A DNA stretch of 64,000 bases from Fidelibacterota bacterium (lineage in GTDB: Bacteria; Pseudomonadota; Alphaproteobacteria; Rhodospirillales; Rhodospirillaceae). Below the pieces are notes generated by a model. It made no database searches. It was not told the DNA's origin and saw only the letters and a list, made by a program, of their open reading frames with translations. The position numbers were made by a program, and so were the translations under genes. The stretch spans positions 3,553-67,552 of the forward strand of contig CANJBL010000013.1 of NCBI GenBank assembly GCA_947472795.1, written 5' to 3'. Shown here one piece after another: positions 24,987 through 63,993 of the stretch. The number at the start of each line of letters is the position of its first letter. Position 1 is the stretch's first letter.

Positions 24987-25864
24987 ATGGGCAAACGGTT
25001 ATTAACTGTATCGATCGCGCCTCTGATTAGGTCCGTGTAGCCGCTATGATTATTATACATATTATTGGGGTCCTCCCCCAACTCTCTCATAAAATCATCT
25101 AGGTTGCTCTTGCCCTGTAAGCGGTTGAAAAATTGAGTACCTCTAAACGCGTCAATTGAAGCCTGATTCGTCGGATAGCTATAGGGCTTCTCATTCGCAT
25201 CACTCAGTCCAAATAAATTATTTTTCTTAGACTGACCCCAAGCGCTTTCATGAGCGGCGAGGCCAAGAATGAAATTTGGAGGTACCTTCATCTCATTTGC
25301 TAGCGCGGTGAGAGGACCAGTATATGACCTGAAGAACGCATTCACGTGTGGCGGATTTAAGCTTTTTGGGGTTACCGTAATCCCCTCTGTCGGCGGGCCA
25401 GGAACGACATATGGTTGCCCACCGCCGCCGCCCGTGTCCACTTGCCCGCCGCTGACCAAATCAAAGCCGGGTGAGGAAAATGAACCGGAGTCCACGTAGG
25501 GCGAACCAATGGTCGCAACGGATTCCCCGTTGTCGGTGAAACCGTCGTAAGAGCCCTCGAACTCCGGCAGTCCAGCGTTCGGGTTAATGCGGTTCTTGCG
25601 GCTGCCGATGCGCAAAGAGTCGAAAGGTATGTTGTTGGCCGCAGCTGCCTGGCGCAGAAGGGAGAGAAGTTCTGGGGTTTGCAGAAACTCCGGGAGGATG
25701 ATCTCGCCGGGCGTCAGATGCGCCATCTCGGTGTCGCCACCACGGCCCTGGGCAGCGAGGGCCTTGGCCTGACGGGCGCGTTCCTTCTGGCGCTTTTTCT
25801 CGAGGGCTACGGCCTGCTCGCGCGTCAACGCGCCGGGGCTGTTGTTGCGGAAGAGTTCGGTCAT
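24968..25864 (-). CDS. polymorphic toxin: conserved N-terminal module fused to a glucosaminidase/muramidase-like (FlgJ C-terminal type) peptidoglycan glycosidase domain
   Basis: 298 aa with an AAGGAG RBS. Residues 1-165 are shared with 26662..27756. The C-terminal ...ILGLAAHESAWGQSKKNNLFG... resembles the catalytic-Glu block of Glucosaminidase (PF01832) domains. No signal peptide. Confidence 0.8.
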   Translation of the reverse strand: MTELFRNNSPGALTREQAVALEKKRQKERARQAKALAAQGRGGDTEMAHLTPGEIILPEFLQTPELLSLLRQAAAANNIPFDSLRIGSRKNRINPNAGLPEFEGSYDGFTDNGESVATIGSPYVDSGSFSSPGFDLVSGGQVDTGGGGGQPYVVPGPPTEGITVTPKSLNPPHVNAFFRSYTGPLTALANEMKVPPNFILGLAAHESAWGQSKKNNLFGLSDANEKPYSYPTNQASIDAFRGTQFFNRLQGKSNLDDFMRELGEDPNNMYNNHSGYTDLIRGAIDTVNNRLPIWEQGH

Positions 25865-57776: not shown

Positions 57777-57985
57777 GGGCCACACGCGTTCATTTTGAGT
57801 CCCCCGAGAATCGAAACGGTGTCTTTCCCACCGCACGCGAAATATTATTACAAATTCCCTCTTCCTTCACGCAATAGAAAAGATGAAGTCCGGTGCCTTC
57901 AGCCCCCAGCTCGTTGCCTTGCGCGGGGTGCATAGCGACCGTATGTTACCCCCCAATATTGCATCGCAACCCTTTGTTTCGGCTC

Positions 57986-58939
57986 ATGTCCACCATACAC
58001 ACCAAGGTTCTGATACTCGGGTCGGGTCCCGCCGGCCTGACGGCCGCCATTTATACGGCCCGCGCCAATCTTTCGCCCATCGTTGTCGCCGGCATGCAGC
58101 CGGGCGGTCAGATGACCATCACCACGGACGTGGAGAATTATCCGGGATTCCCGGATGTCATCCAGGGTCCGTGGCTCATGGAGCAGATGCAGAAGCAGGC
58201 GGAGAACGTCGGCACGCGGATGATCCACGACCTGATCGTCAAAATCGATCTCACCAAACGCCCGTTCACGTGCGTGGGCGATTCCGGCGACGTCTATACC
58301 AGCGACACACTCATCGTGACGACCGGCGCCTCGGCGCGCTGGCTGGGCCTGGACTCGGAAAAGAAATTCCAGGGTTTTGGCGTATCTGCGTGTGCCACAT
58401 GCGACGGCTTCTTCTTCCGCGGCAAGGAAGTGGTGGTCGTGGGCGGCGGCAACACCGCCGTCGAGGAAGCGCTCTATCTCACCAATCACGCCACCAAAGT
58501 GACGCTGGTGCATCGCCGCGATTTCCTGCGCGCCGAAAAGATTCTGCAGAAGCGTCTGTTCGAGCATCCCAAGATCAAGGTGGTGTGGGACAGCGCTGTT
58601 GATGAAGTCGTCGGCAAGGAAGGCCCTTTGAGCGTCACCGGCGTGAAGCTGAAGAACGTGAAGACGGGCGCTGTGGAGCACATCGAAACCCACGGCCTGT
58701 TCGTCGCCATCGGCCATACGCCGAACACCGAGCTGTTCAAAGGTATCCTCGACATGGATGAGAACGGCTATCTGATCACCGCGCCAGATTCGACGCGGAC
58801 GAATATTCCCGGCGTCTTTGCCGCGGGCGATGTGCAGGACCACGTGTACCGTCAGGCCGTAACGGCCGCGGGAACGGGGTGCATGGCGGCTTTGGAAGCA
58901 GACCGCTTCCTCGCCGCGGGCGGCGCGGCTCACGGTTAA
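57986..58939 (+). CDS. trxB: thioredoxin-disulfide reductase
   Basis: KVLILGSGPAGLTAAIYTARA...ACATCDGFF (CATC redox site)...GDVQD. The ATG at 57986 is chosen. Confidence 0.95.
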   Translation: MSTIHTKVLILGSGPAGLTAAIYTARANLSPIVVAGMQPGGQMTITTDVENYPGFPDVIQGPWLMEQMQKQAENVGTRMIHDLIVKIDLTKRPFTCVGDSGDVYTSDTLIVTTGASARWLGLDSEKKFQGFGVSACATCDGFFFRGKEVVVVGGGNTAVEEALYLTNHATKVTLVHRRDFLRAEKILQKRLFEHPKIKVVWDSAVDEVVGKEGPLSVTGVKLKNVKTGAVEHIETHGLFVAIGHTPNTELFKGILDMDENGYLITAPDSTRTNIPGVFAAGDVQDHVYRQAVTAAGTGCMAALEADRFLAAGGAAHG

Positions 58940-59009: not shown

Positions 59010-59969
59010 ATGGTGATACGTAGCAACGGCCGTCTGGATTGGGACAAACTCCGCGTGTTTCACGCGGTGGCTGAAGCGGGCAGCTTCACACACGCAAGCG
59101 AGACCCTGAATCTCAGCCAATCGGCGGTGAGCCGCCAGATCAGCGCGCTGGAAGACGCGCTGGGTGTCAGCCTGTTCCACCGCCACGCCCGTGGCCTGAT
59201 CCTGACCGAGCAGGGCGATCTGCTCTACAAGACTGTGCACGACGTCTTTGCCAAGCTGAACAACGTTGAAAGCCTGTTGACGGAGACCAAGGAGAACGCC
59301 GAAGGCGTGCTTCGTGTCACGACCACCGTTGCCTTTGGATCGGTGTGGTTGACGGGCCGCCTGAAGGAATTCATCCGCACGTACCCGGATATCCAGGTGA
59401 CCCTGCGCCTCGATGATCAGGAGCTGGATCTCGCCATGCGCGAGGCCGACGTTGCCATCCGCTTTAACGAGCCGACGCAACCGGATCTGATCCAACGCCA
59501 TCTGGTCTCGCTGCACGCCAATCTGTACGCCTCGCCGGAGTACCTGAAGGAGCGTGGCCTGCCGCGCTCGCTGGAAGAACTGCGCAACCACGATTTTGTG
59601 CTGTTCGGCGAAGGCGTGCTCCCAGTCTCGACCGTGCACTGGTTCGCTGACCTGTTGGCCAAGAACAACATGGCCACCCGCTCGACCCTGCGCGTGAACA
59701 ACATTTATGGCATCTACCGCGCCGTGAAGGCCGGCATCGGCATCGGCCCCCTGCCTGAGTATTTCCTGCAAGAAGGACGCGGCATCGTGCAGGTGCTGCC
59801 GGAATTGGAAGGCCCGCCCATCGAGGCCTACTTCGTCTACCCCGAGGAGCTGCGCAATTCGGCCCGCGTAACCGTGTTCCGTGACTTTCTGGTGCGTGAA
59901 ATCGCCAAGGCCCGGACCCAGCTCACGGTCGTTGCCCAAGCCGCCGACGTCCTGCGGACCGCGGGTTAG
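59010..59969 (+). CDS. LysR-family transcriptional regulator
   Basis: LDWDKLRVFHAVAEAGSFTHASETLNLSQSAVSRQISALEDALGVSLFHR is an HTH_1 domain, followed by a LysR substrate-binding domain. Confidence 0.9.
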   Translation: MVIRSNGRLDWDKLRVFHAVAEAGSFTHASETLNLSQSAVSRQISALEDALGVSLFHRHARGLILTEQGDLLYKTVHDVFAKLNNVESLLTETKENAEGVLRVTTTVAFGSVWLTGRLKEFIRTYPDIQVTLRLDDQELDLAMREADVAIRFNEPTQPDLIQRHLVSLHANLYASPEYLKERGLPRSLEELRNHDFVLFGEGVLPVSTVHWFADLLAKNNMATRSTLRVNNIYGIYRAVKAGIGIGPLPEYFLQEGRGIVQVLPELEGPPIEAYFVYPEELRNSARVTVFRDFLVREIAKARTQLTVVAQAADVLRTAG

Positions 59970-60119
59970 AGCCGTTTTTCGGCCATTCGCAGATTAGAAC
60001 TGTGTGAACCTTCCGCGTCATAGACATGCGTTTGCTGCATAGCGGCATTCCTATATCGCATTGGAAATCAGAGATTTTGACACCTATTGTCTTGGCAGAT
60101 GTTGCGGCGCAGCAAACGC

Positions 60120-60352
60120 CAACAACCGGTCCTCCCCCGGTGGTGTAGCGAAGCCCGGCAAGAAACTTGTGATGAACGGTCCTCCCCCGGACATCACTTG
60201 GTCTAAAGGGTAGACGGGTGATCTAGGGTCCTCCCCCCGATGGTCGCCAAGGGTTCAGAGGCGCATAAGCCTCAACCCACGTCTAATAGGTGCTAAACCT
60301 CCCTGCAGAACTTATCGCCCCGAGGGTCCTCCCCCCTCGGGGCGAAATATTT
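60120..60352 (+). ncRNA. candidate multi-hairpin sRNA(s) with C-rich UCCUCCC loops (cuckoo/CcsR, alpha-r14-like)
   Basis: Four hairpins each present tcctccc in the loop. H1 is 60125-60141 (accgg/ccggt). H2 is 60169-60197 (gtgatg..cgg/ccg..catcac). H3 is about 60221-60241. H4 is 60316-60344, a perfect 11-bp stem (cgccccgaggg/ccctcggggcg). A fifth CCTCCC occurs at ~60298. There is no ORF. Ends and strand are inferred, not determined. Confidence 0.55.
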
Positions 60353-60385
60353 ATGGGCCTAGCCCATCTCCCAAATATGCAAACA

Positions 60386-60416
60386 AAAACGGCGCTCCTT
60401 CAGGGAGCGCCGTTTT
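60386..60416. terminator. bidirectional terminator downstream of aatA (-); same sequence family as the grxD terminator
   Basis: aaaacggcgctcc-ttcag-ggagcgccgtttt with A/T runs on both sides. The 5' flank aaacaaaaacggcgctc matches 21748.., 24261.. and 25972... Confidence 0.8.

Positions 60417-60437: not shown

Positions 60438-63993
<3,556 letters not shown>

Follow-up and report, generated by a model that had tools for sequence, protein, structure and literature searches.

The stretch analysed here (the window) comprises 64,000 nucleotides of a Rhodospirillaceae genome within the order Rhodospirillales (assembly GCA_947472795.1, contig CANJBL010000013.1, positions 3,553 to 67,552). On its plus strand, a thioredoxin-reductase-like trxB gene and a LysR-type regulator gene are followed by a gap that runs from the LysR stop (59969) to the stop of the convergent gene aatA (60438). 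This gap holds a conserved gene of about 255 nt for a small regulatory RNA (sRNA), whose tandem hairpins carry the anti-Shine-Dalgarno (anti-SD) heptamer UCCUCCC in their loops (Table 1). The LysR gene, which an initial annotation of the window had treated as mere context, is the ortholog of Agrobacterium LsrB/VtlR, and it is key to the lineage of the sRNA.

Table 1 Features of the trxB-lsrB-sRNA-aatA locus, in window coordinates
Feature	Position	Strand	Basis
trxB, thioredoxin-reductase-like	57893..58939	+	Pfam Pyr_redox_2, E 2.4e-54
LsrB/VtlR-type LysR regulator gene	59010..59969	+	Pfam HTH_1 and LysR_substrate
LysR-type box ATGC-N7-GCAT (T-N11-A), putative LsrB site	60026..60040	+	conserved in the genus
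GCATAGCGGCATT, one mismatch from the VtlR/LsrB box GCAT-N3-TG-N3-T	60037..60049	+	sequence
Predicted sigma-70-type promoter: -35 TTGGAA (60061-60066), -10 TATTGT (60085-60090)	60061..60090	+	conservation
Predicted sRNA, ~255 nt	60097..60352	+	alignment of 10 genomes, RNAalifold, covariation
5' hairpin UGUUGC-GGC-GCAGCA	60100..60114	+	alignment columns 6-20; common to order-wide lsrB-linked sRNAs
Hairpin 1, loop UCCUCCC 60130-60136	60116..60146	+	fold
Hairpin 2, loop UCCUCCC 60180-60186	60169..60197	+	covariation
Nearly invariant GUCUA-AAGGG-UAGAC element (GUCUAAAGGGUAGAC)	60201..60215	+	alignment columns 124-138
Hairpin 3, loop UCCUCCC 60229-60235	60217..60248	+	covariation
Hairpin 4, without anti-SD motif	60251..60278	+	helices 7 and 8; compensatory changes at 4 of 6 pairs
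3' module: small hairpin ACGUCUAAUAGGUG, fifth motif AAACCUCCCUG, terminator	60273..60352	+	model R1
Intrinsic terminator, loop UCCUCCC 60327-60333, tail AAAUAUUUAU	60315..60354	+	repeat search, covariation
Separate bidirectional terminator of convergent aatA, outside the sRNA	60386..60416	.	perfect 13-bp inverted repeat
aatA, Aminotran_1_2	60438-61640	-	Pfam

Four exact plus-strand copies of the C-rich string GGTCCTCCCC lie in the gap, at 60128, 60178, 60227 and 60325, as the initial annotation had stated. A repeat search returned a 23-nt unit in three copies, spaced 50 and 49 nt apart in agreement with the reported spacing of about 49-50 nt, a 14-nt unit in four copies, and, enclosing the last GGTCCTCCCC copy, a perfect 12-bp inverted repeat whose stem had been given as 11 perfect bp. 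A weaker CCTCCC reported near 60298 was placed at 60298-60303. Tandem Repeats Finder (TRF) found no classical tandem array at the locus, because the hairpin cores alone are repeated. RNAfold placed every UCCUCCC in a 7-nt hairpin loop, as had been proposed, with a z-score of -4.15 for 60060-60360, and the four UCCUCCC loops had unpaired probabilities of 0.93-1.0 in the fold of the window sequence itself. The gap had further been described as free of open reading frames (ORFs); all ORFs in it are indeed at most 50 aa long, and a Pfam search of them gave no convincing match (best E 0.33).

We compared the gap with 40 related genomes by BLAST, which detected a homologous stretch in eight congeneric genomes, at 67-73% identity, and a ninth relative from the genus was added by a pattern scan. 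The genus set thus consists of ten loci from ten genomes, the window's own and those of nine relatives; the relatives are metagenome bins from freshwater. Across the aligned sequences, hairpins 2 and 3 and the terminator have loops with little or no variation, and the stems vary by compensation, for instance from GUGAUG/CAUCAC to GCGGUG/CGCCGC. RNAalifold predicted 56 pairs for the ten genomes, 16 of them with compensatory changes. When a nine-helix structure was imposed, 96.3% of the cells could pair, compared with 39-53% when the partners were slid, and both-side changes were seen at 15 pairs as against 1-5 in the slid controls; a covariation as high as that observed occurred in 0 of 500 shuffles. 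The G-U pairs are compatible with the plus strand alone. Conserved loops combined with compensatory stem changes indicate that the gap encodes a structured plus-strand RNA (60097-60352), and the covariation supports the candidate anti-SD sRNA with tandem hairpin loops that the initial annotation had put on this strand. A minus-strand RNA was rejected in view of the G-U pairs, the polarity of the terminator and the strand matched by the covariance model R1 described below. Coding of a small protein was likewise rejected, since the ORFs are short and without convincing Pfam match and the insertions and deletions in the relatives are not multiples of three.

The regular spacing of the units would also suit a repeat that is not transcribed, such as an element like the repetitive extragenic palindromic (REP) families or an array of protein-binding DNA sites, and a REP family dispersed in the genome had been named as the finding that would overturn the sRNA proposal. 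However, GGTCCTCCCC has only seven copies on both strands of the 3.2-Mb assembly and four of the seven lie at the sRNA locus, so the element is local rather than a dispersed REP family. Moreover, the stems change by compensation, the G-U pairs are valid on one strand, and the array begins behind a promoter-like block and ends in a terminator, all of which makes a non-transcribed repeat extremely improbable. A scan of the genome collection for GGTCCTCCCC-N-GGTCCTCCCC was uninformative, with unrelated Streptomyces and other repeats among the matches listed.

From 5' to 3', the RNA opens with a short hairpin whose motif also opens the sRNAs of other families in the order. This 5' hairpin never covaries and could also be a DNA operator. 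The LysR box (GCGTTTGCTGC, 60028-60038) and the 5' part of the sRNA (GCAGCAAACGC, 60109-60119) form an 11-nt perfect inverted repeat. Hairpin 1 is the most variable, with a GGUCCUCCCCC loop in six genomes and CCCUCCCUCCC, CCCACCCUCUCC or a related C-rich sequence in four. Hairpin 2 shows compensatory changes at four of the six outer-stem pairs and keeps its loop in nine of ten genomes (CCUCCCC in G024), and four of six outer-stem pairs are compensatory in hairpin 3 as well. The 23-nt repeat family D1 makes hairpins 2 and 3 83% identical with a shared stem GUGAU...AUCAC, and from their sequences the two look like duplicates. Between them, the GUCUAAAGGGUAGAC element could fold into a local mini-hairpin or reach further downstream, to pair with GUCUAAU and with the CCC of the fifth motif. 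These folds are mutually exclusive and covariation gives no choice between them; in the minimum free energy fold of the window sequence, the element pairs with 60281-60303 and hides the fifth motif AAACCUCCCUG, which contains the CCUCCC at 60298-60303. The terminator stem consists of 12 perfect bp (14 bp in the alignment) with compensatory changes at three pairs, and its loop is identical in nine of ten genomes (UCCUCCG in G023). Beyond the sRNA, sequences very similar to the aatA terminator (AAAACGGCGCTCC/GGAGCGCCGTTTT) recur on the same contig, at about 21750 and 24265 of the window (L013, L016), and copies occur also in relatives.

The whole 11-nt GGUCCUCCCCC, including its closing pairs, is kept in hairpin 3 and in the terminator with one exception each among the ten genomes, and hairpin 2 keeps it minus the first G in nine genomes. 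This exceeds what pairing with a Shine-Dalgarno (SD) sequence needs, and many identical loops are typical of sponges; the RNA might accordingly be a decoy whose four identical loops titrate a protein or RNA recognising GGUCCUCCCCC, in the manner of CsrB/RsmZ with CsrA. We consider this quite unlikely. No candidate partner is known, UCCUCCC is a base-pairing seed in AbcR1/2 and NfeR1, and the closing G-C pairs may merely stabilise the 7-nt loops.

Among solved structures, the LysR product is matched best by 9HH1 (313.8 bits, E 1.1e-92; the next LysR-type transcriptional regulator scored 116 bits), which is the cryo-electron microscopy structure of Agrobacterium tumefaciens LsrB (PMC11975290). 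The trxB-lsrB operon is described as constant in Rhizobiales (PMC11975290), and the gene order trxB-lsrB-sRNA was found at all ten genus loci, where the true start of the window's trxB is probably the ATG near 57994. An LsrB ortholog is encoded in 110 of the 121 genomes sampled from the order. The orthology of the regulator places the sRNA in an AbcR-like, LsrB-linked lineage. The LsrB of the window contains no cysteine in the whole protein, and the A. tumefaciens residues C144, C236, C244 and C273 align with V, V, G and V here. Therefore, the thiol switch of Agrobacterium LsrB cannot operate in this bacterium.

In the interval between lsrB and the sRNA, the sole conserved block is CATGCGTATGCTGCATAGCGGCATTCC..ATT.GCATTGGAAA, followed by a variable spacer, a TAnnnT hexamer and CAGATGTTGC. 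With its centre at about -64 relative to the predicted start, the box ATGC-N7-GCAT stands about 71 nt before CAGATGTTGC, a distance that is constant in the nine loci scanned (the window's own and eight relatives); in the tenth locus, L009 (G024), the box was recognised by eye. Similar boxes precede lsrB-linked sRNAs in other genera of the taxonomic family. Overlapping it, GCATAGCGGCATT (GCAT-N3-GG-N3-T) covers -60..-48, which may be compared with the consensus and position of the VtlR/LsrB box GCAT-N3-TG-N3-T (PMC7486931, PMC8844928); the two boxes together span -71..-48 and are both conserved in the genus. LsrB activates AbcR1 via this box at -61..-49 (PMC8844928) and NfeR1 via TGCA-N6-GCAT at -72..-60 (PMC10746234). 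Downstream of the box, TTGGAAA (ATGGAAA/ATGGATT in G011 and G024) and TAnnnT recur at fixed spacing in all ten genus loci and the spacer sequence between them varies, suggesting a promoter of the sigma-70 type. Upstream of the trxB-like gene (57929-57975), TGCATAGCG...ATATTGCATCG resembles the sRNA block TGCATAGCG...ATATCGCATTG with a longer spacer; judging from this resemblance, LsrB may have another site here, and trxB-lsrB would then be autoregulated.

The initial annotation had instead proposed an RpoH-type promoter, TTG-16 nt-CTATAT. The RpoH1 consensus of S. meliloti is CTTGAA-N16-CCTATAT, so that the distance from TTG to CTATAT is 19 nt there and 16 nt here, 3 nt too short, and the proposed -10 is not conserved in the nine relatives. 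Two other readings were tried. A sigma-54 reading of TTGGCAGATGTTGC was rejected, for it shows GG-N8-GC rather than GG-N10-GC and an unconserved TGG, and an EcfG-type reading of GGAAA(C/T)-N-GTA was set aside with a -10 that is TAnnnT and not CGTT.

The conserved block also bears on the possibility that the RNA is a structured 3' untranslated region (UTR) of the trxB-lsrB operon, made by read-through and maybe processed, which would act in cis on the stability of lsrB mRNA or give a 3'-UTR-derived sRNA. The RNA is co-oriented with lsrB and begins 128 nt after its stop codon, the sole lsrB-proximal hairpin (GCCG-UUUUU-CGGC, 59971-59983) is weak, and an element with the same loop occurs elsewhere in the genome, on contig C33. 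Against this stand the LysR box, -35 and -10 block, conserved between lsrB and the RNA while the flanks are not, a good terminator after lsrB and before the block in relatives (e.g. L309, L334), and a divergent congener (G006, L310) with two tandem sRNA units behind lsrB, each with its own copy of the block. A 3' UTR is therefore unlikely. In G006, the terminator loop of the first unit reads CUCCUCC; with its two units, this congener shows a tandem state like that of AbcR1/AbcR2 within the genus.

One or two tandem units that resemble sRNAs, each 135-170 nt long, follow lsrB at about 22 of 29 loci from other genera. In the usual unit, a 5' hairpin UGUUGC-N-GCAGCA (loop N3-5) and a variable C-rich hairpin are followed by a hairpin ACGUCUCCCAGACGU, then by GAAGCCUCCCUGUU and finally by a strong terminator. 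A 28-nt core is found exactly in more than 120 species, including Azospirillum, Roseomonas, Reyranella, Kiloniella, Magnetovibrio and Inquilinus. We built the covariance model R1 from the 3' module of 26 lsrB-linked sRNA sequences from other taxonomic families, none of them from this genus. R1 matched 60273-60352 over its full length (22.5 bits, E 2.2e-05) as the top match in the window, and it also matched several congeners. Indeed, the small hairpin, GCCUCCCUG and terminator that make up the 3' module of the family are all present in the window RNA, and the 5' hairpin is found downstream of trxB-lsrB at 60100-60114. The R1 match and the 5' hairpin together indicate that the window RNA shares both ends with the order-wide family and has a much larger middle.

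This family is absent from Rfam. Its units score below threshold with suhB/MmgR (33.2 vs 41 bits) and SorX (32.3 vs 46.6 bits), and the Rfam cut-off of ar15 was reached in 0 of the 121 genomes of the order, so the order is not the rhizobial one. In the literature that was searched, no AbcR-type RNA from a Rhodospirillales-like taxon came up.

The enlarged form of the RNA is a feature of the genus. At least two GGUCCUCCCC copies within 25-60 nt were detected in 19 of 27 genus genomes, with 0 for a reversed-pattern control. Ten genomes have the architecture of the window (type A), and ten have a type B that retains a CGUCUCCGGACG hairpin and likewise bears the motif in the terminator loop. Among 30 genera of the taxonomic family, the pattern was seen in one other genus only, as three seed hairpins followed by a plain terminator. 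On our reading, the window RNA is a genus-specific enlarged member of an undescribed lsrB-linked anti-SD sRNA family, which is found at the same place in many non-rhizobial Alphaproteobacteria and is the positional counterpart of rhizobial AbcR1/AbcR2. In addition, some larger genomes of the genus (G001, G019, G197) have a third locus with two GGUCCUCCCC motifs, GGTCCTCCCCCCTAACGGCGC...GGATGGTCCTCCCC, about 19 kb from the type-B lsrB-region RNA and on the opposite strand.

The repeat, the fold and its covariation, the strand, the synteny, the LsrB orthology, the conservation of the box and the link to the family are direct observations. From them we infer transcription of the gene, its dependence on LsrB, its targets and their repression. 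We propose, with a probability of roughly 70%, that the gap holds a single plus-strand gene behind trxB-lsrB for an LsrB-driven, multi-seed anti-SD sRNA, an enlarged member of the lsrB-linked family. LsrB would bind ATGC-N7-GCAT near -64 and activate the sigma-70-type promoter, and the transcript would carry UCCUCCC in four exposed 7-nt loops, including that of its own terminator, and a fifth, weaker seed, CCUCCC, ahead of the terminator. These seeds would pair with ribosome-binding sites of the GGAGG type, especially the G-extended GGGGAGGA, and block the initiation of translation, probably with the help of Hfq, which is encoded in the genome. The three identical anti-SD motifs of NfeR1 are redundant and the two of AbcR1/2 act independently; by analogy, the seeds of the window RNA might act redundantly or on several mRNAs at once.

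A crude screen of start regions for 8-10 nt of complementarity returned mostly exported proteins, and the candidates include NHL-repeat proteins, an M23 peptidase, a pyrroloquinoline quinone (PQQ) dehydrogenase, a creatininase and a Lipoprotein_15 protein. Signal peptides were predicted for 44% of the genes with extended complementary SD sequences and 16% of those with a bare GGAGG, a difference that is suggestive and confounded by false ORFs; in the pre-planned contrasts the enrichment was not significant (p = 0.13 and 0.40). A 12-nt perfect complement at 25067-25078 (minus strand) was dismissed as a chance match, since the site is internal to a toxin ORF and the next start codon is about 80 nt away. 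RNAduplex energies against neighbouring genes were discarded, as they ignore intramolecular structure.

Several points weigh against the proposal of an LsrB-driven multi-seed sRNA. The U-tail of the terminator is weak, and in the predicted fold of the window sequence the fifth motif is base-paired. The promoter, the start near 60097 and the binding of LsrB are predictions, and a generic TTGACA/TATAAT scan of the locus called no promoter. The signal of a cysteine-free LsrB may differ. The binding proteins of ATP-binding cassette (ABC) transporters, which are typical of the AbcR regulon and its Hfq-dependent repression, are missing from the top ten of the target screen. Furthermore, ar15 has no match at the locus at E <= 10, and its best match in the genome lies elsewhere with 16.3 bits (cut-off 40); homology to AbcR proper is thus not shown, and position, regulator and seed alone are in common.

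The initial annotation had put the hairpins forward as a candidate cluster of cuckoo (ar14)/CcsR-like RNAs, which would entail CCUCCUCCC-type loops, an RpoH-type stress promoter and maturation together with a DUF1127 protein. One criterion for such RNAs is a neighbouring OG1/DUF1127 gene (CIN1; RSP_6037/CcaF1 for CcsR), and another, for CcsR, is a promoter of the RpoHI/RpoHII type. The Rfam scan suggested along with that annotation returned no match at the locus at gathering thresholds. When the thresholds were relaxed, ar14 (RF02344) was the best match, with 23.6 bits (E 0.024) at 60210-60349 and 14.6 bits at 60111-60202, far below its cut-off of 58.8, which is exceeded nowhere in the window's genome. 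None of the six genomic copies of CCUCCUCCC lies in the locus. DUF1127 (PF06568), whose absence from the gap had been noted, has no match in the ORFs of the gap or in the 97%-complete genome. The cuckoo family is described as 2-4 adjacent hairpins that carry CCUCCUCCC in the loop; an OG1/DUF1127 gene accompanies about half of the members, and the family was found solely in Rhizobiales, Rhodobacteraceae and the unclassified Polymorphum gilvum (PMC4615179). The layout of 2-4 anti-SD hairpins fits this description, and NfeR1, an ar14 member, is also activated by LsrB, so that a distant common origin is conceivable. Nevertheless, the score, the missing CCUCCUCCC and DUF1127, the unconserved and wrongly spaced TTG-16-CTATAT, the known taxonomic range, and a 5' hairpin and 3' module that match the lsrB-linked family instead make membership in the cuckoo family very unlikely. 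The functional idea of the initial annotation is thus broadly right and its family assignment wrong.

The genome's best ar14 match, at 29.8 bits also below the cut-off, is a 3'-UTR-like element on another contig (L152; C33:2891-2977, minus strand) after a gene ending ...AKTAKKAA. It contains CCCUCCCCC and has the terminator loop GGUCCUCCCCC, and it may be a 3'-UTR-derived anti-SD sRNA. A terminator loop similar to that of this element occurs at C32:14878 (minus strand).

The LsrB/VtlR-AbcR system is a well-studied virulence and symbiosis circuit that has so far been described in Rhizobiales only. The circuit itself is known there; the new details are its breadth, the family missing from Rfam, the expansion of seed hairpins and the cysteine-free LsrB. 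The locus and its relatives indicate that the regulator-sRNA cassette is much older and wider than the Rhizobiales, and the genus illustrates how an sRNA grows by hairpin duplication into a molecule of four to five seeds. With a cysteine-free LsrB, the circuit is uncoupled from thiol sensing, which prompts the question of the signal that it now reads. A covariance model of the family would put a label on this unannotated gene in alphaproteobacterial genomes from freshwater, soil and the sea, hundreds of them in all. More tentatively, and with considerable doubt, the RNA may be an evolutionary bridge, in which an LsrB-controlled sRNA in the AbcR position became a cuckoo-like array by duplication of its seed hairpin and conversion of its terminator loop. 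In that case, the cassette of LsrB and sRNA would be ancient in the Alphaproteobacteria, and the Rhizobiales families ar14 and ar15 would be two branches derived from it. On the same tentative reading, four or five seeds on one molecule could also bridge or co-sequester several mRNAs, which one-seed sRNAs cannot.

In comparison with known systems, the window RNA agrees with the order-wide family in position and ends, standing behind trxB-lsrB with the same 5' hairpin and 3' module. Other members of that family have one variable C-rich hairpin and a plain terminator, whereas the window RNA has gained three extra GGUCCUCCCCC hairpins, apparently by duplication, its terminator loop has changed to the same motif and its version of the 28-nt core is divergent. 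The 3' small hairpin, single-stranded CCUCCCU and terminator of MmgR/suhB (alpha-r8, RF00519, in clan CL00108 with ar15) and SorX (RF02784) resemble the order-wide relatives, but the window RNA gave no match to either at E <= 10, and context and the 5' two-thirds differ. The cuckoo RNAs (ar14/NfeR1, RF02344; CcsR1-4/RSs0680a-d) are likewise modular series of anti-SD hairpins, and NfeR1 shares several identical, redundant seeds and activation by LsrB. In contrast to their CCUCCUCCC loops, the window RNA displays UCCUCCC in tight 7-nt loops with hairpins lacking the anti-SD motif interspersed, and it has neither a DUF1127 neighbour nor an RpoH promoter and comes from outside their known taxonomic range. 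AbcR1 and AbcR2 (alpha-r15, RF02345) of Sinorhizobium, Agrobacterium and Brucella lie in tandem next to lsrB, with the anti-SD UCCUCCC in the 5' loop (PMC3712013). The window RNA likewise adjoins trxB-lsrB/vtlR and has the same UCCUCCC loop, with another C-rich motif ahead of the terminator; about 50-70 nt upstream of its predicted start it has a LysR-type box with GCAT half-sites, and tandem copies occur in some of its relatives (G006 and many genera of the order). AbcR1 and AbcR2 are rhizobial RNAs of about 115-120 nt with three hairpins, whereas the RNA described here has about 255 nt, seven to eight hairpins and four identical seeds plus one, of which one sits in the terminator loop, in a host outside the Rhizobiales whose LsrB lacks the redox cysteines.

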